Below the pieces are notes generated by a model. It saw only the letters and a list, made by a program, of their open reading frames with translations. It did not search any database and was not told the DNA's origin. A DNA stretch of 64,000 nucleotides from an uncultured Gammaproteobacteria bacterium (GTDB taxonomy: Bacteria; Pseudomonadota; Gammaproteobacteria; Steroidobacterales; Woeseiaceae). Shown here one piece after another: positions 3,325 through 11,148 of this stretch. The position numbers and the translations under genes are program-made. The stretch is taken from the NCBI GenBank assembly GCA_963752875.1, contig CAVWAH010000011.1:121761-185760 (forward strand), in the 5' to 3' direction. The first letter of the stretch is position 1. Every line of letters begins with the position of its first letter.

Positions 3325-6126
3325 ATGACACAGCCCACACGGCTTACTCGTATTTTATTGGCAGCTGCGGCGATCCTGTGGTTCGCGGGAAGCCCGGCTC
3401 TGGCCCAGGAAGATGAAAGGTGCCTGAAGTGTCACGACGATCCTGAGCTGACCAGCTACCGTGGAGACACGGAAATATCGGCCTATGTTACGGCTGCGAT
3501 GATCGCGGGATCTGTGCACTCCGGCGAGGCGTGCGTGGACTGCCACGGTGATCTCGCTGGAAGCAAACGCCGCAGGCACGCCGAAGACCTGGAGCCCGTC
3601 GAATGTGGCGAGTGCCACAGACGCCAGGCCAGAGCGCATGGCAACAGCCTGCACGGTGCCGCAGCTGCCGAGGGCGATCCAATGGCCCCGACCTGTGGCG
3701 ACTGCCACGGCAAGCACGACGTCCTGTCGTCCTCCAGCGCCAACGCGACAACCGCGGTGATGAATATCCCGGTGCTTTGCGGAAACTGCCACCGCGAGGG
3801 CGCTCCGGTATCGCGAACTCATGAGATTTCGCAGGAGAACATCCTCGAGAATTACTCGATGAGTATTCACGGTGAAGGTCTGTTCTCGCAGGGCCTCACC
3901 GTCACGGCTGTTTGCACCTCTTGCCACACCGCACATGACATCCTGCCGCATACCGATCCGAAATCGAGTATCCACGCCGACAATGTCGGCGAGACATGTA
4001 CCGCATGTCACGGCCTGATCGAAAACGTGCACCGCAAGGTCATCGAGGGCCATTTGTGGGCGGAAGATCCGGGCAAGATCCCTGCCTGTGTCGACTGCCA
4101 CGCCCCGCACAAGATTCGTAACGTATTTTACCCGGACGGCCTGGCCGACAAGGATTGCCTGAGCTGCCACAGTCAGCCTGACCTGTCGATGGAACGTGGT
4201 GGCAACACCATCAGCCTGTACGTCGATGAAGAAGCCTACGAAAACTCGAAGCATACAGACACTTCTTGTGCCCAATGCCACACGGACGTGACCGTCGCCG
4301 AAGAACGTGCGTGTTCAACAATACAGACGCAGGTAGATTGCAGTATTTGCCATGCTGAGCAGGTGTTGGAGTACGGCGGCAGTACACACGGAACCCTACA
4401 TGCCGAAGAAGATCCGGATGCGCCTTCCTGTCAGGATTGTCACGCCAAGCACGCGACACTTGGCCAGGATTCGCCGGCGTCGCCGACCTATGCGCTCAAT
4501 GTTCCGACGCTCTGTGGAGACTGTCATCGCGTGGGCGAGCAGGCCGCCGGCCGGATAGAGGCGAAGGTCGGTGACATAGTCGGCAGCTATGAGGATAGCG
4601 TGCACGGCCGCGGATTGATTGAGAGCGGTCTTGTTGTAACAGCGACTTGCGCCGATTGCCACGGGGCACATAACGAACTTCCGCCGGACAGCCCGAACTC
4701 CAACATTAACCCGAATAATATCGCGGGTACCTGTGGTCAATGCCATCATGGCATTGAGGAGCAGTTCCGGGAGAGCGTTCACTGGACGGACGATCCGGTC
4801 GCTGATGAAAACAAACCCACCTGCGAAGACTGTCATTCCTCGCACACCATCATGCGTACCGAACAGATTGGATTCCGCGACCTGATGATGGAACAGTGTG
4901 GCCGTTGTCATGAGGACGAGACGGAGACATTTTTCGATACATTCCACGGCAAGGTTTCGCGCCTGGGTGGTGAGGGCGTCGCCAAGTGTTACGACTGCCA
5001 TGGAACTCACGGCATCGTTGCGCCAACGGATCCCAATTCGACGCTCAGTAGGGATAATGTCGTCGAGACCTGTGGGCAGTGCCACGAGGGCTCTCACCGG
5101 CAATTCGCGGGCTACCTGACACACGCGACGCATCACGATCGCGAAAAATACCCTTGGTTGTTCTGGTCGTTCTGGGGCATGACTGCGTTGCTGGTCGGTA
5201 CACTGTCATTTGCCTTGCTGCACTCGTTCGCCTGGGTGATCCGACTCGTGCTGAATCGTGAAGAGTGGCGAGCACACAAGGCGTTGAGCCAGAGCAGAGA
5301 CCAGAAATTCTATCGCCGTTTCAGCCGACTCCAACGCACCATGCATATCATAATGATGCTCAGCTTCTTCACGCTGGCGTTGACAGGCATGGCGTTGAAA
5401 TTCTCATACATGCCCTGGGCACAGGCGGTTTCCAATTTCCTGGGCGGATTTGACAGCATGGGCTTCCAGCACCGCGTTGGAGCGTTCGGCCTGCTGATTG
5501 TTTTCATTCTGCATACCTACGACATTGTCAGCTATAAGCGAAAGACGAAGCAGACCATGTGGCAGATCATTAACGGACCGGACTCGATTATTTTCAATGG
5601 CCGTGATCTCAAGGAGTTCATCCAGTCGATCAAGTGGTTCTTTGGCATGGGCGAGCGTCCCAACTACGGCCGCTACACCTACTGGGAGAAGTTCGATTAC
5701 TTCGCGGTCGGCTGGGGTATCATCATCATCGGTACGACCGGACTCGTACTCTGGTTCCCCGAAATCTTCACACGTATTGTGCCGGGCTGGGCAGTGAATG
5801 TGGCTACGATCATTCACAGTGACGAAGCGCTGCTTGCAGTGGGTTTCATCTTCTCGATTCACTTCTTTAACACCCACTTCCGGCCCGACAAGTTCCCGAT
5901 GGATCCCGTGATATTTACTGGGCGTTTGTCTGTCGATGAGCTGAAATACGACAAGCCTGGCGAATACGAAGAGCAGGTGGAATCCGGTGAGCTGGAGAAT
6001 AACCTCGTCAGAGCGTTCCCAAGGTTCAAAGACAAGGGCGTGAGGATATTTGGCATGCTGGCGCTGACCTTCGGTCTGGTGGTGCTGGGCCTGATTGTGT
6101 ACTCGATGCTGTTCGGCTACCGTTGA
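3325..6126 (+). CDS. 19-heme c-type cytochrome fused to a C-terminal b-type cytochrome membrane domain (CbcL-like architecture)
   Basis: Signal peptide ...AGSPALAQE. 19 CXXCH motifs counted in residues ~33-590. The C-terminal ~330 aa form multiple TM helices with conserved His (RTMHIIMM, FQHRVGA, FILHTYD, TIIHSDEA, SIHFFNTHF), as in FdnI/HydC-type diheme cytochrome b. Confidence 0.85.
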   Translation: MTQPTRLTRILLAAAAILWFAGSPALAQEDERCLKCHDDPELTSYRGDTEISAYVTAAMIAGSVHSGEACVDCHGDLAGSKRRRHAEDLEPVECGECHRRQARAHGNSLHGAAAAEGDPMAPTCGDCHGKHDVLSSSSANATTAVMNIPVLCGNCHREGAPVSRTHEISQENILENYSMSIHGEGLFSQGLTVTAVCTSCHTAHDILPHTDPKSSIHADNVGETCTACHGLIENVHRKVIEGHLWAEDPGKIPACVDCHAPHKIRNVFYPDGLADKDCLSCHSQPDLSMERGGNTISLYVDEEAYENSKHTDTSCAQCHTDVTVAEERACSTIQTQVDCSICHAEQVLEYGGSTHGTLHAEEDPDAPSCQDCHAKHATLGQDSPASPTYALNVPTLCGDCHRVGEQAAGRIEAKVGDIVGSYEDSVHGRGLIESGLVVTATCADCHGAHNELPPDSPNSNINPNNIAGTCGQCHHGIEEQFRESVHWTDDPVADENKPTCEDCHSSHTIMRTEQIGFRDLMMEQCGRCHEDETETFFDTFHGKVSRLGGEGVAKCYDCHGTHGIVAPTDPNSTLSRDNVVETCGQCHEGSHRQFAGYLTHATHHDREKYPWLFWSFWGMTALLVGTLSFALLHSFAWVIRLVLNREEWRAHKALSQSRDQKFYRRFSRLQRTMHIIMMLSFFTLALTGMALKFSYMPWAQAVSNFLGGFDSMGFQHRVGAFGLLIVFILHTYDIVSYKRKTKQTMWQIINGPDSIIFNGRDLKEFIQSIKWFFGMGERPNYGRYTYWEKFDYFAVGWGIIIIGTTGLVLWFPEIFTRIVPGWAVNVATIIHSDEALLAVGFIFSIHFFNTHFRPDKFPMDPVIFTGRLSVDELKYDKPGEYEEQVESGELENNLVRAFPRFKDKGVRIFGMLALTFGLVVLGLIVYSMLFGYR

Positions 6127-6183: not shown

Positions 6184-7566
6184 GTGGCCAGGGTCTTTCA
6201 TCTTTGGCGTATTGGGGCAGGGCTTATGTTGGATTTAACCGGTCACTGGGTCGGCGCTACCGCCCTCCTGATATTTGTCCTGGCTTACCTGCTGGTCATC
6301 GTCGAGGAATTCACGCACCTCAGAAAGTCCAAGCCGGTAATCCTTGCTGCCGGCCTGATCTGGGCAATCATCGCCTATCAGTACGCTACTGCGTCCATTT
6401 CACATGCGACGGAGGAGGCCGTCCGACATTTCCTGACGGAGTTTGCCGAGCTGTTCCTCTTCCTGCTCACAGCGATGACCTACGTCAATGCGATGAGTGA
6501 GCGTCGCGTGTTCGCGGCGCTCCGGTCGTGGCTCGTAAACCATGAATTCAGCTACCGACAACTATTCTGGATTACCGGCATCCTCGCCTTTTTCCTCTCG
6601 CCCATAATTGACAACCTCACGACAGCACTGGTGATGTGTGCGGTATTGCTCGCAGTGGGAAAAGAGAGCCCGAAATTCGTCAGTATTGGTTGTGTCAATA
6701 TCGTCGTCGCGGCCAACGCAGGCGGAGCATTCAGTCCATTTGGGGACATCACGACATTGATGGTCTGGCAAAAGGGGACATTGGAATTCCAGACGTTCTT
6801 CGCACTGTTTGTTCCGTCAGTCGTCAACTACCTGGTGCCGGCAGTCGTCATGTCTTTGGCGGTGCCTAAAGCAAGCCCACAGGCGGAGACTGAGGTTGTC
6901 GAAATGCAGCGCGGTGCCAAGAGAATGATGTTTCTCTTCGGATGCACGATTGCAACGGCGGTCAGTTTTCACAACTTCCTTCACCTCCCACCATTTCTCG
7001 GCATGATGACGGGACTCGCCTATCTTCAGATCTTCGGCTACTACCTGCGAATCACACACACTGCTGAAATGGAAAATGGACCGATTCGTGGCCGACATGG
7101 AGAGATCACTGCGTTTGACAGCTTTCGAGAAATCGCGCGCGCCGAATGGGACACGCTGTTGTTCTTCTTCGGTGTGATCATGTGCGTTGGTGGCCTTGGG
7201 TTCATCGGCTACCTGGATCAATTGTCCGTTTACGCCTATTCGGAACTCGGCGCGACGGTTGCCAACATACTGGTTGGTATCGCATCCGCGATCGTGGACA
7301 ACATTCCGGTCATGGTAGCGGTACTGCAGATGTACCCCGAAATGGATGTTGCGCAATGGTTGCTGGTTACGCTAACAGCTGGCGTCGGCGGCAGCCTGCT
7401 TTCTATCGGTTCAGCCGCAGGTGTTGCCCTGATGGGTCAGGCGCGAGGTCAATACACCTTCTTTTCTCATCTGAAGTGGACGCCGGCGATTGCCGCCGGC
7501 TTCGCACTGAGTATCTGGGTGCATTTCCTGGTCAACAGCCATTACATCGGGGTGGCCCCGACGTAG
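6184..7566 (+). CDS. nhaD: Na+/H+ antiporter, NhaD/ArsB-type permease
   Basis: 460-aa polytopic membrane protein with the NhaD family pattern. The track start is GTG 6184; an in-frame ATG at 6226 (MLDLTGHW...) is an equally plausible start. Confidence 0.7.
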   Translation: MARVFHLWRIGAGLMLDLTGHWVGATALLIFVLAYLLVIVEEFTHLRKSKPVILAAGLIWAIIAYQYATASISHATEEAVRHFLTEFAELFLFLLTAMTYVNAMSERRVFAALRSWLVNHEFSYRQLFWITGILAFFLSPIIDNLTTALVMCAVLLAVGKESPKFVSIGCVNIVVAANAGGAFSPFGDITTLMVWQKGTLEFQTFFALFVPSVVNYLVPAVVMSLAVPKASPQAETEVVEMQRGAKRMMFLFGCTIATAVSFHNFLHLPPFLGMMTGLAYLQIFGYYLRITHTAEMENGPIRGRHGEITAFDSFREIARAEWDTLLFFFGVIMCVGGLGFIGYLDQLSVYAYSELGATVANILVGIASAIVDNIPVMVAVLQMYPEMDVAQWLLVTLTAGVGGSLLSIGSAAGVALMGQARGQYTFFSHLKWTPAIAAGFALSIWVHFLVNSHYIGVAPT

Positions 7567-7590: not shown

Positions 7591-9462
7591 CTAGGTGTCT
7601 TCTTCGGGAGTCTCCTGATAGACAACCTCACCGCGTTCCTCTGCCCTTGAGAAAGGCGGCTTGCCGGTAAACCAGGTCGTATCCATCGGGTAGACCGCCG
7701 GGTCGAGCATAACGGAGTAGAAATGCCAGATGAGGATTGCAAGCGTCGCCAGGATTGCCTCGAGGAAATGCAGGACGGTAGCCGCCTCAGGAACCCATCC
7801 CGGGAGCCATGTCAGTGTAAGGTTCTCGAACCACAACACTAGTCCCGTCACCGCTGTGACGAACGTGCCCCACAACGCGGCCCAGTATTCGACCTTCTCA
7901 ACGTAGCCGACGCGCACCGGGGCCGGCGGATCGGAACGCAGCCCCAGGTTGTAGCTGGTCCGGTGGACAAACTCACTGAAATCGGCGGTCTTCGGCAGGA
8001 ACGATGCCATCTGACCCCGTGCGCGCGCGCTGATGGCGAGATGGCCGAAATGAATCAGGCAGGCTCCCATGAGACCCACTGCGGCGATACGGTGGACCAG
8101 ACCGCGAAACTCGTTGTCCCCGAACTGCAGTAATACAGCCCACCAGCTTTCCGGGTACTTCAATGCAAATCCCGTGTATACGAGCACGAAGAAACTGACG
8201 GCGGCCAAGGCGTGCACAAGCCGGAATGGTCGAGACATGCGTTCCTTGATCGAGCTTTGCTCGGGAGCCCGGCGCCGCCACAACGAATAGGTGCGCGTCT
8301 TTTTGACCAGGTCGAGCAGGTTGTGCAGCAGCATGCCGATGACGGTGACCCAAATCAGGGGAATGTAGATTTTCCTGATCCAGTAGGCGACGACGTTGGA
8401 GGTCTCGTCGGCAATCGTGTGTACAGGACCGATCGCAAACCGGGTTCCCGCTCCGGCATGGCATTGTCCGCAGGTCTCTGCCAGGTTATCTGTGTGGGTG
8501 TGTGAATCGGGGTCGGTCGACGGCAGAATGTTGTGCACGCCGTGGCAGCTTGCGCAATTGGCGACACGCTGTGAACCGCCGCGTGCGGCCAGTCCGTGGA
8601 AGCTCTCGCCATAGGACGGAACCTGGTCCACAGGCAGGCCGTATTTTTCGCTGAGCTTGAGGTCTGAGTGGCAGGGACCGCAAACCTGGATCGGGACGTT
8701 GCTGGCCGAAACGGGCGATCCTGGAGCCGCGATCGCTAAAATCCGATGCTCGCCATGACAATCTGTGCACACCGGTGATTCGTATACGCCGGCGGCCGCT
8801 GCCATCCCGTGAATGCTGCGACCGAACTGCCTGGTGATCTTACGGTGGCAATCCCCGCACGTGTCAGGCACGTTCATGCGATGAATAGAGGAGGTCGGGT
8901 CAGAGGCGGGCAACGGCGAGTGGGCCGAATGGCAGTCGCTGCAACCGGGTCCCGGATCATGATCGTGAACGGCTTGCGCGTGCACGCTGGCCGTGTAGGC
9001 CGCGATCGGGCGAATAGTCGCCACGTTTCGATCCGCCGGCGGTTCCTTACCATGACATGCGCCGCAAGTTTCACCTTGGGATAATGAAGAAACCGGGGAT
9101 GACTCATCGGTGTACGACGTCATGGTGTGGGTTTCGCCATGGCAATCCGCACAGGTCGGCAATATCGGGTCAGGGAATTTCTGCGGGCCGAGCTCGCCGT
9201 GCGCGCTAGTGGATTGCTCCTCGACTACATCATCGTGGCAGGATCCGCAGTCGACGGGATCGAGTCCGCGCCTGTGCCGGCGCTGGTCGGCACCGACATG
9301 GCAGTCGAGGCATTCCGTCGTGCCGTGGACCGTAAGCTCGAATTGCGCGAGGTCGGTTTCGTGGCAATCGAGGCAGGGATTTACCTGTTCGGTGTCGCTC
9401 GCTTGTAATGTGAGCGGCATACAGGCAAGGAGAAGGGTGAAGCTGGCGATGAACTTGTGCAC
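7591..9462 (-). CDS. 11-heme c-type cytochrome fused to a C-terminal b-type cytochrome membrane domain (CbcL-like architecture)
   Basis: Signal peptide MHKFIASFTLLLACMPLTLQA. 11 CXXCH motifs. The C-terminal TM domain carries conserved His (RLVHALAA, LVHRIAA, CLIHFGH, TVLHFLEA, LIWHFYS) and aligns by eye with the C-terminal domain of the 3325-6126 protein. Confidence 0.85.
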   Translation of the reverse strand: MHKFIASFTLLLACMPLTLQASDTEQVNPCLDCHETDLAQFELTVHGTTECLDCHVGADQRRHRRGLDPVDCGSCHDDVVEEQSTSAHGELGPQKFPDPILPTCADCHGETHTMTSYTDESSPVSSLSQGETCGACHGKEPPADRNVATIRPIAAYTASVHAQAVHDHDPGPGCSDCHSAHSPLPASDPTSSIHRMNVPDTCGDCHRKITRQFGRSIHGMAAAAGVYESPVCTDCHGEHRILAIAAPGSPVSASNVPIQVCGPCHSDLKLSEKYGLPVDQVPSYGESFHGLAARGGSQRVANCASCHGVHNILPSTDPDSHTHTDNLAETCGQCHAGAGTRFAIGPVHTIADETSNVVAYWIRKIYIPLIWVTVIGMLLHNLLDLVKKTRTYSLWRRRAPEQSSIKERMSRPFRLVHALAAVSFFVLVYTGFALKYPESWWAVLLQFGDNEFRGLVHRIAAVGLMGACLIHFGHLAISARARGQMASFLPKTADFSEFVHRTSYNLGLRSDPPAPVRVGYVEKVEYWAALWGTFVTAVTGLVLWFENLTLTWLPGWVPEAATVLHFLEAILATLAILIWHFYSVMLDPAVYPMDTTWFTGKPPFSRAEERGEVVYQETPEEDT

Positions 9463-9741
9463 TGAGATGCCCGGTGTTCCAGAATGTTCTGGCGTTAGGA
9501 ACGCTTGGCCATATTATGGGCCCCATTCGTCGATATCCCAACACCTTGAAACTGCGAGAAATACGGATTTCCGTGCTGCTCCTACGTAGTCTAATATCGC
9601 ACTCGCTACGACCAACTAAAATACTCTGAGTGTTGCTCAGTTGGGGACAATAAGAGCGTTCAAGCGAGAACTGACGGCAGACTTGCCAGGACAATAAATA
9701 TCAGGCATCCCCCGGTCATTGATCGGAACTTGAGGAACACC

Positions 9742-11148
9742 ATGATCAAGAACTTCTTTGCGTCAATTACTCATAACGCCATCAGCCTGGTTGGTACCGC
9801 AATCGCCGTGGCTACACTGGTACTTATGGCGAGCCTGTTCGGCATGGAAATTTGGGGCTTCGATGGCGGCCCATACCTGGGAATACTGACGTACCTGATT
9901 CTGCCGATGATTTTTGCCATTGGCTTGATTCTGATTCCGGTCGGCGCGGTTCTTTATCGCCGCAGGCTGCGACGCGTGCAGGGAGGAGAAGACACGCCTC
10001 TACTGCCAGTGTTCGACCTGAACATCCAATCGACACGCCGCTGGATGCTGATATTTGTCGCTGCGACGATGTTCAATATCGTCATTGTCGCGGGTGCGAC
10101 CTACAAGGGCGTACATGTCATGGAGTCCGTGGAATTTTGCGGTCTCGCCTGCCACTCGGTCATGGAGCCCGAGCACACAGCCCATGCAAGGTCGGCGCAT
10201 TCGCGGGTTGCGTGCGCCGATTGTCATATTGGCCCCGGTGCAGACTGGTTCGTTAAGTCCAAGCTGGATGGTGCGTGGCAGCTCATCTCTGTAGCCTTTG
10301 ATCTCTACCCGCGCCCGGTGCCCACGCCGCTGCATGATTTGCGCCCGGCACGGGAAACCTGCGAGCAATGCCATTGGCCGACGAAGTTTGTCGGTGACAG
10401 GCTCAAGGTGATTAATCACTTTGAAGATGACGAGGCGAGTACAGAATTAACGACGGCATTGCTGCTGAAGGTCGGGGGCTCCAGCGGAAGCAGTTCGCAC
10501 GGCATTCATTGGCATGTCGATCCGGATGTCAAGATTCGCTACCGGTCAGACGACACCCGTGAAGAAATCTACGAGGTGGAGTTTGCTCATGGCGACGATG
10601 AGGCGGTTATCTACTCAGACCGCAAGGCGCCGGAGGAAGGCGGCGTCTGGCGTTCGATGGACTGCGTCGATTGCCATAACCGGCCGTCGCATATCTATGA
10701 ATCGCCGGGACCTGCAATCGATGGGGCTATCAAGACCGGCCTGATCGATCGGTCACTGCCGTTCGTCAAACGCGAAAGCCTGCGCGTGATTAATGCCGAA
10801 TACGAATCTCACGAGGTGGCTCGAGAAGCGATCACTGCCGGGTTCACGGCTTTCTATGCCGACAACTACCCGGACATTGCAACCGAAAGTGGCGAGGAAA
10901 TTGACGCGGCGGCAAACGCGCTGGGCGACATCTTTTCGGTCAATGTCTTTCCGGGCATGAATGTCTGGTGGGATACCTATCCGAACCATATCGGACACGA
11001 ACAATCGGATGGGTGCTTCCGTTGCCACAGGCGCAGCATGCGAACAGCGGACAGGAAGCAGATCTCGGACGACTGCGACAATTGCCACGTCCTGCTTGCT
11101 GAAGAAGAGGAAAATCCAGACATCATGGCCGTGCTGAAACCAGAGTGA
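9742..11148 (+). CDS. membrane-anchored NapC/NirT-like multiheme cytochrome c (3 TM helices, 6 heme motifs; ImcH-like architecture)
   Basis: ATG 9742 follows GAGGAA (the track start is TTG 9730). Three N-terminal TM helices. Heme motifs are CGLACH (a CX3CH), CADCH, CEQCH, CVDCH, CFRCH and CDNCH. Confidence 0.75.
   Translation: MIKNFFASITHNAISLVGTAIAVATLVLMASLFGMEIWGFDGGPYLGILTYLILPMIFAIGLILIPVGAVLYRRRLRRVQGGEDTPLLPVFDLNIQSTRRWMLIFVAATMFNIVIVAGATYKGVHVMESVEFCGLACHSVMEPEHTAHARSAHSRVACADCHIGPGADWFVKSKLDGAWQLISVAFDLYPRPVPTPLHDLRPARETCEQCHWPTKFVGDRLKVINHFEDDEASTELTTALLLKVGGSSGSSSHGIHWHVDPDVKIRYRSDDTREEIYEVEFAHGDDEAVIYSDRKAPEEGGVWRSMDCVDCHNRPSHIYESPGPAIDGAIKTGLIDRSLPFVKRESLRVINAEYESHEVAREAITAGFTAFYADNYPDIATESGEEIDAAANALGDIFSVNVFPGMNVWWDTYPNHIGHEQSDGCFRCHRRSMRTADRKQISDDCDNCHVLLAEEEENPDIMAVLKPE

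Follow-up and report, generated by a model that had tools for sequence, protein, structure and literature searches.

Inner-membrane cytochromes of the CbcL/MtrH/MtoC family fuse an N-terminal periplasmic domain rich in CX2CH motifs to a C-terminal HydC/FdnI-like cytochrome b domain with ligand histidines. The 2018 catalogue of Zhong and Shi lists homologues from 15 phyla, with 3-23 hemes in 416-1034 amino acids and mostly six transmembrane helices, members with five or four helices being listed as well; identity within the family spans 28.6-100% (PMC6295460), and frequent linkage to mtrAB/mtoAB or other c-cytochrome genes is a further family trait. Both Fe(III) reducers and Fe(II) oxidisers have homologues (PMC6295460). 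Here this family is compared with a gene, termed B, found in a stretch of 64,000 nucleotides (the window: positions 121,761 to 185,760 of contig CAVWAH010000011.1, assembly GCA_963752875.1) from an uncultured gammaproteobacterium of the family Woeseiaceae. B encodes such a fusion of cytochromes c and b (c::b fusion) with 11 c hemes and lies close to a 19-heme paralogue, termed A.

Several described systems stand close to B. CbcL of Geobacter sulfurreducens (GSU0274; 619 amino acids, 9 hemes, 6 predicted helices) works beside ImcH in the same organism, the locus numbers of the two genes being distant (GSU0274, GSU3259), and identity within the Geobacter/Desulfuromonas CbcL cluster is ~57-100% (PMC6295460). 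MtrH (Rfer_4073) and MtoC (Daro_1404, Galf_2006), with 9 hemes and 6 transmembrane helices, have the same fusion plan and are encoded beside conduits of mtrAB/mtoAB type (PMC6295460). FdnI, the cytochrome b556 subunit of E. coli formate dehydrogenase-N, is by contrast a separate subunit, which reduces menaquinone with electrons from FdnGH.

Architecture and family placement of B

The N-terminal half of B consists of c7/c3-type multiheme domains and a doubled-CXXCH domain, as seen from Pfam matches that all exceed their cut-offs (PF14522, PF14537, PF09699 and, in the C-terminal half, PF01292). CxxCH occurs exactly 11 times in it, from residue 30 to residue 335, and variants of the motif are absent. 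A first, sequence-only reading of the window had assigned 19 hemes to A and 11 to B, and the motif counts in the two open reading frames agree with both numbers. The gaps between successive motifs of B are 16, 16, 27, 24, 36, 23, 25, 24, 37 and 23 residues. An alignment of 37 sequences contains exactly 11 invariant histidines outside CxxCH (H46, H63, H88, H112, H161, H181, H218, H239, H289, H310 and H348), four of which belong to the diheme modules discussed below. Eleven motifs matched by 11 additional histidines imply that all the c hemes of B would be bis-histidine ligated. NCBIfam returns only generic models: a c7-type triheme domain exceeds its cut-off, and formate dehydrogenase gamma falls far short of its own. 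Anchoring of B as a lipoprotein through Cys14 ('LLAC') was considered and ruled out, as this cysteine is not kept in orthologues.

The C-terminal domain is of the FdnI/HydC type. Ni_hydr_CYTB (PF01292) scores 41.6 bits (cut-off 30.1) on residues 408-587. A profile of 30 diverse family members retrieves FdnI from the PDB (1KQF_C, E 5e-15, residues 3-210 of 217), and aligns its H18, H57, H155 and H169 with H417, H457, H565 and H580 of B, the predicted b-heme ligands, which are invariant in both of the alignments used. A fold search with the AlphaFold2 model of B gives the same chain as the sole significant PDB match (probability 1.00, TM 0.74 normalised to the target), followed by the cytochrome b of hydrogenase-1 (HyaC). 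The sequence of B by itself finds in the PDB only a weak match to a fragment of GSU1996; it is the family profile that reaches FdnI. B thus has in common with FdnI the four-helix diheme b fold and all four heme histidines, and differs from it in being fused to its own c-heme wire through an extra linker helix. Hydropathy and the model both give five transmembrane helices, the linker helix and four more, with neither a sixth helix nor a hydrophobic segment after the last one. As a side observation, hemes 1-5 of the family profile match PDB entry 28pb chain A (278 amino acids, named only 'Cytochrome c', E 1.3e-14), possibly the nearest solved structure to the N-terminal stretch of the wire.

The comparison with described members relies on published heme and transmembrane maps, the heme gaps of CbcL and MtoC/MtrH being derived from Table S2 of PMC6295460. 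B displays the periplasmic domain of the family (11 CxxCH behind a signal peptide), its b domain with ligand histidines and its linkage to c-cytochrome genes. It has five helices instead of six, as do 75 of 90 representatives of its clade, which does not disqualify it since five-helix members are known. With CbcL it shares the fusion of an N-terminal multiheme c domain with a diheme b domain of HydC/FdnI type, and also the presence of an ImcH homologue in the same genome. The last four gaps of CbcL (24, 23, 38, 23) resemble those of B (25, 24, 37, 23), with the same two terminal 23-spacer modules and a linker of ~37 residues. The complete CbcL pattern (18, 20, 18, 19, 24, 23, 38, 23) departs from B towards the N-terminus, where 18, 20, 18, 19 stands against 16, 16, 27, 24, 36. 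In MtrH and MtoC, the last four gaps (26, 20, 25, 23) match those of A (25, 20, 25, 23) and not those of B. The membrane-proximal spacing of B is therefore CbcL-like and that of A MtrH/MtoC-like. The long 19-heme members, catalogued in 2018 and listed many times (Marinifilaceae BAX79136.1, Caldithrix abyssi Cabys_319), likewise match A and not B. Their cysteines at 35, 72, 95, 125, 153, 198, 226, 256, 279, 316, 339, 369, 397, 442, 470, 500, 525, 555 and 583 are, in BAX79136.1, nearly identical in position to those of A (33, 70, 94, ..., 583).

Four lines place B in the CbcL/MtrH/MtoC family, probably as an inner-membrane quinol:cytochrome oxidoreductase: domain architecture, fold, the published maps and the link through A. 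Several points weigh against this assignment. The tie to GSU0274, Rfer_4073 and MtoC is indirect, passing through A, the published maps, Pfam and the fold. With 11 hemes and five helices against nine and six in Geobacter CbcL, B is not a CbcL orthologue. It falls outside the strict definition of such orthologues, and the CbcL gap pattern occurs in 0 of the 150 best family representatives. The model of B (mean predicted local distance difference test score, pLDDT, 76.8) has a predicted template modelling score of only 0.48, which makes the relative placement of its c and b domains unreliable. Finally, the direction of electron flow cannot be read from the sequence, the family being found in Fe(III) reducers as well as Fe(II) oxidisers (PMC6295460). 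An 11-heme, five-helix form with gaps 24-37-23 was not seen in Table S2 of PMC6295460, and no experimental study of it was found in the literature searched. As judged here, B adds to a known family a member of a clade that is large but uncharacterised.

Table 1. Positions in the window of gene B, its parts and its neighbours
Feature	Position	Strand	Basis or remark
Gene A, 19-heme paralogue, A-type clade	3325..6126	+	933 amino acids, 6 transmembrane helices
A octaheme block 1, residues 33-264	3421..4116	+	40% identical to block 2
A octaheme block 2, residues 278-509	4156..4851	+	Self-alignment
nhaD, Na+/H+ antiporter gene	6184..7566	+	NCBIfam NhaD_1, 595 bits
Gene B, c::b fusion, B-type clade	7591..9462	-	GTG start, 623 amino acids, 11 CxxCH
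B cytochrome b domain, FdnI/HydC-type, four helices, diheme, residues 408-590	7693..8241	-	PF01292, family profile, fold search
B linker transmembrane helix, residues 357-390, periplasm to cytoplasm	8293..8394	-	Hydropathy; AlphaFold2 helix, pLDDT ~90
B periplasmic domain	8407..9399	-	11 CxxCH and 11 invariant extra His; 37-sequence alignment
B tetraheme unit 2, residues 224-340, hemes 8-11	8443..8793	-	24-spacer module, 37-residue linker, 23-spacer module
B diheme module, hemes 10-11, residues 303-335	8458..8556	-	Spacer 23
B diheme module, hemes 8-9, residues 232-265	8668..8769	-	Spacer 24
B tetraheme unit 1, residues 96-210, hemes 4-7	8833..9177	-	24-spacer module, 36-residue linker, 23-spacer module
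B diheme module, hemes 6-7, residues 174-206	8845..8943	-	Spacer 23; Pfam Paired_CXXCH_1 at residues 173-208
B diheme module, hemes 4-5, residues 104-137	9052..9153	-	Spacer 24; degenerate, missed by the sequence-only reading
B signal peptide, residues 1-21	9400..9462	-	Probable cleavage after LQA; inferred by eye from sequence
Divergent intergenic region, B / imcH-like gene	9463..9729		One sigma-70-like site, 9513-9541 (-), consensus match only
ImcH-like cytochrome, adjoins B	9730..11148	+	3 transmembrane helices, one CX3CH and five CxxCH

The MtrCAB island and the direction of electron flow

B lies in an island of respiratory genes. In order, these are hypF and hypE; mtrB, mtrA and mtrC on the reverse strand, ~6 kb from B; genes for a PdsA-like diheme protein and a SnoaL-like protein; A; nhaD; B on the reverse strand; the imcH-like gene; type-B sdh/frd CAB genes; an NrfCD-type module of tetraheme, iron-sulfur and NrfD genes; a DUF2339 gene; ApbE; and the Na+-NQR genes. 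The mtrC product is an outer cytochrome of the MtrC/OmcA type (401 bits). The hypF and hypE genes stand just upstream of mtrB with a gene for an FKBP-type isomerase between them and it (L004 11038-14457, on the contig upstream of the window).

The motif and transmembrane map of the imcH-like product equals that of ImcH homologues of Table S3 in PMC6295460, for example in Geothrix fermentans. With this gene next to B, candidate quinol oxidases number at least three in the organism. A CymA/NapC-type tetraheme quinol dehydrogenase gene was not detected in the 83%-complete genome, where the PF03264 cut-off is passed by the imcH-like gene only. As far as gene content can tell, CbcL-type and ImcH-type oxidases seem to take the place of CymA in feeding MtrCAB here. 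Woeseiaceae are reportedly abundant in marine sediments, and knowing which oxidases feed MtrCAB helps in reading benthic iron and manganese reduction.

A path for electrons through B can be proposed from these elements. The Sec signal would export the N-terminal domain with its 11 bis-histidine c hemes, and the single linker helix would bring the chain back to the cytoplasm. The four-helix bundle of FdnI type would bind two b hemes, one through H417 and H580 on the cytoplasmic side and the other through H457 and H565 on the periplasmic side. By analogy with FdnI and CbcL, quinol would be oxidised at the membrane domain. Electrons may then pass from the two b hemes to the c-heme chain, on to the PdsA-like diheme protein or MtrA, and out via MtrCAB. 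We infer the direction of flow, the position of the quinone site, the redox partners and any division of labour among A, B and ImcH from the behaviour of related systems. With a cytoplasmic quinone site, as in FdnI, outward flow would be electrogenic against the membrane potential. By analogy only, this would fit a report that Geobacter grows with a lower yield when its respiration depends on CbcL (bioRxiv 10.1101/2022.08.31.506072). Tuning of A and B to different redox potentials, by the same kind of analogy, is plausible.

The same chain of hemes could be run backwards, B acting as a quinone reductase that takes electrons from periplasmic or outer-membrane cytochromes (supplied by Fe(II), minerals or partner cells), the role proposed for MtoC. 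The homologues of Fe(II) oxidisers and the want of any sequence feature that would tell the two directions apart (PMC6295460) speak for such a role, and a capacity for lithotrophy may be hinted at by hypE and hypF immediately upstream of the island. This reading is nevertheless unlikely, as the island encodes an MtrC/OmcA-type outer cytochrome typical of reducers and a homologue of ImcH, whose family has so far been implicated in quinol oxidation only. In addition, the heme spacing of B is nearer to the CbcL end of the family than to the MtoC end, and in a published survey the mtrCAB of benthic Woeseiaceae is tied to dissimilatory iron reduction (PMC12175321).

It is also conceivable, at somewhat longer odds, that B is a CymA-like general hub for soluble reductases and carriers of the periplasm and not specific to extracellular electron transfer. 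Without a gene of CymA/NapC type in the genome, some protein must fill that role, and many B-type loci of other phyla lack an MtrAB-like gene within 8 kb. This was seen in a sample of the 80 species-level loci most similar to B, with 8-kb flanks, whose counts are inflated by relatedness and do not represent independent events. In Woeseiaceae, however, the B gene is always inside the MtrCAB island, and an MtrA-like decaheme gene is nearby in 19 of the 80 loci. The assignment of B to quinol oxidation for MtrCAB remains the preferred one.

The sequence-only reading attached significance to A and B being convergent with only nhaD between them. The gene order is as it described, A and nhaD lying on the forward strand and B on the reverse strand; relatives, however, keep the island and not the arrangement. 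One locus (L007, B 76% identical) is arranged as in the window. In L005 (73%), an AraC gene and an amidohydrolase gene separate A and B; in L006 (68%), the two are in tandem, 34 nucleotides apart; they are also in tandem in genome G077 (70%) and directly convergent in G021 (70%). A functional partnership of nhaD with A or B was ruled out by this synteny, nhaD being missing from the position in L005, L006, G021 and G077. No terminator was found between nhaD and B, promoter and terminator counts being at or below shuffle expectation. The B-imcH intergenic region contains no FNR/CRP-type box (TTGATN4ATCAA), a motif whose total in the window is at chance level (28 against 22 expected).

Nested heme repeats

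The periplasmic domains of A and B are built from a diheme module, which would be the structural brick of the family. The motif first proposed for it placed a histidine one residue after CxxCH; two residues in fact intervene, and the corrected form is CxxCH-xx-H-x(n)-[DS]P-x-S-x(n)-N-[VIL]-x3-CxxCH. Under the original motif, the count of eight copies is reproduced, seven with a spacer of 23 residues and one with 24, five of them in A and three in B, and the two strings quoted as examples are present as given (A residues 197-229, B residues 174-206). The division into five and three does not extend beyond that motif, as B has a degenerate fourth copy and A two shortened ones. The full modules of A begin at residues 124, 197, 369, 442 and 555, all with a spacer of 23, and the shortened copies at residues 255 (spacer 18, hemes 8-9) and 500 (spacer 20, hemes 16-17). 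In B, the spacers are, in order, 24, 23, 24 and 23.

The spacing is not peculiar to these two proteins. Of ~545 modules counted in the 150 representatives that rank best in the family, 409 have a gap of exactly 23 after CxxCHxxH and 74 one of 24, far beyond chance, which upholds the conserved spacing claimed for the module. Similarly, 100 of 102 full-length B orthologues (57-89% identity) have 11 hemes, and their last eight gaps (27, 24, 36, 23, 25, 24, 37, 23) are almost invariant throughout the 102. Judged by these alignments, the 23/24 spacing is a strongly constrained family-wide feature. The series 23, 25, 24, 37, 23 offers a simple signature for metagenome annotation.

The module also has a counterpart outside the family. 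The doubled-CXXCH domain (PF09699/TIGR01905), present in the MtrA/DmsE decahemes, contains the same CxxCH-xx-H...CxxCH brick, with a spacer of 18-19 in the MtrA of this genome as opposed to 23-24 in A and B. PF09699 itself scores 26.9 bits on B (cut-off 20.6; residues 173-208) and 56.4 bits on A (residues 553-589). At the level of motif and profile, the module is a long-loop form of this known domain. By analogy with other bis-histidine multiheme cytochromes, its extra histidine presumably serves an adjacent heme as distal ligand, and the length of the 23/24-residue loop may be fixed by packing, in so far as an AlphaFold2 model that carries no hemes can indicate. Pairwise identities between modules, heme residues excluded, range from 15 to 52% and mainly track the position in the tetraheme unit. 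A tree of single modules was discarded, 33 residues being too short to use.

Modules are themselves repeated in larger units. The two tetraheme units of B are 34% identical (E 7e-17, z 8.4 against shuffles holding the heme motifs fixed), and the gaps 24, 37, 23 of unit 2 are kept across the B-type clade. The spacers of B alternate because each unit comprises a 24-spacer module, a linker and a 23-spacer module. B would thus be nested, from diheme module to tetraheme unit (24-37-23) to a protein of three hemes and two units. In A, the two octaheme blocks form a near-gapless repeat (E 1e-51, six gap positions) within the heme gaps 32, 19, 25, 23, 40, 23, 25, 18 and 32, 19, 25, 23, 40, 23, 25, 20, 25, 23. 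The halves of A are 40% identical to each other and each 33-34% identical to B. Some A-type relatives have only 11 hemes (gaps 32, 16, 25, 23, 39, 23, 25, 20, 25, 23), and one 22-heme protein doubles that unit. From comparison with these 11-heme and 22-heme proteins, A appears to be an 11-heme core whose first eight hemes have been copied once more, in tandem, ahead of it. The same 19-heme map recurs in other phyla, notably in a Hydrogenedentota protein 54% identical over ~915 aligned residues, and the duplication in A is therefore ancient.

Internal duplication, put forward as the source of growth of both proteins, is borne out by the tetraheme units of B and the octaheme repeat of A, but as old, family-wide events and not as events in this genome. 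Repeated expansion to 13-19 hemes is also apparent within the B-type clade of the tree. The description of B as the divergent copy finds no support. The 11-heme layout is modal (63 of the 150 best representatives), its five-helix form is the commonest layout among these closest family members, and A is the expanded derivative.

Paralogy of A and B and linkage with imcH

A and B are the only c::b fusions of this type in the 2.83-Mb genome. They align over 606 amino acids with 32% identity (32-34% and E 2e-83 over ~600), B corresponding to hemes 9-19 and the membrane domain of A. For B, >7900 homologues were scored, and an exhaustive phmmer search of 1.84 billion cluster representatives found 4853 relatives at E<=1e-3 and 792 at E<=1e-30. 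A FastTree phylogeny of the last five hemes and the b domain (141 rows) separates an A clade, with a long stem of 100% support and end gaps 20-25-23, from a much larger B clade with end gaps 24-37-23. A sixth, C-terminal helix is found in 11/11 A-type and 15/90 B-type representatives. Each has closer relatives in other phyla than the other paralogue, B in Acidobacteriota proteins at ~50% identity and A in the Hydrogenedentota protein at 54%. By identity and tree position, A and B are old paralogues rather than recent duplicates. That they are redundant recent duplicates, the second being a spare without a role of its own, is highly improbable: the shared domain plan and a distance within 1.5 kb are outweighed by the identity of only 32%, the separate clades with a fully supported A-type stem, the greater closeness of each to proteins of other phyla, the retention of the pair in Woeseiaceae, Acidobacteriota and Calditrichota, and the differences in heme count, third-module spacing and number of transmembrane helices.

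Within Woeseiaceae, the distribution of B is patchy. An orthologue is present in 3 of 81 sampled genomes of the family, all three in the genus of the window and all three with an A-type gene adjacent. In a B-type tree of 81 proteins, picked by similarity to B and rooted at the midpoint, the Woeseiaceae clade is nested among Acidobacteriota (Thermoanaerobaculia, Holophagales and Polarisedimenticolia) with 100% local support, and its proteins are 48-51% identical to those Acidobacteriota sequences. Nesting and patchy distribution together suggest that the island was acquired horizontally by Woeseiaceae. A third kind of c::b fusion (~650-720 amino acids, 33-37% identical to B) is found in many other genomes of the family that have no B orthologue, including G034, G002, G017, G030 and G042, and in 8/8 genomes of genus g3.

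The proximity of B and imcH is widespread. An ImcH homologue is encoded in the flanks of 57 of the 80 B-type loci, in ~54 of these <600 bp from the B-type gene and in 50 on the same strand. The linkage extends over Acidobacteriota, Pseudomonadota, Omnitrophota, Calditrichota, Latescibacterota, Ignavibacteriota and Bacteroidota. An A-type gene lies beside the B-type gene in at least 15 of the 80 loci. Examples of trios are imcH-A (19 hemes)-B (13 hemes) in Terriglobia and A (19)-B (17)-imcH in Calditrichia, and Geothrix fuzhouensis has a B (11)-A (11) pair. The 2018 survey noted that imcH is often near c-cytochrome genes and reported no mtrAB adjacent to imcH; from its locus tags, cbcL and imcH are adjacent or nearly so in two Desulfuromonadales-type bins (PMC6295460). 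No description of the B-type/imcH linkage or of the co-occurrence of A-type genes was found in the literature searched.

A tentative proposal, for which we would claim no great likelihood, is that B-type fusions, ImcH and often A-type fusions form a conserved, horizontally mobile quinol-oxidase cassette, acting as one co-regulated set or even a complex, in which potential window or wire length would differ from member to member. The Woeseiaceae cassette may stem from marine Acidobacteriota and have been joined to a Shewanella-type MtrCAB, which it would serve in place of CymA. In Geobacter, by contrast, the quinol oxidases are unlinked alternatives, as the distant locus numbers of cbcL and imcH illustrate next to a B that adjoins imcH. 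The adjacency of B-type and imcH genes, often with an A-type gene, in at least seven phyla provides a testable link between the Geobacter model of a different oxidase for each potential and uncultured lineages. Among the A-type genes of these loci, one 19-heme frame from Acidobacteriaceae (L043 4785-6827) has only 680 amino acids, too short for a full membrane domain, and may reflect a frameshift or an assembly error.

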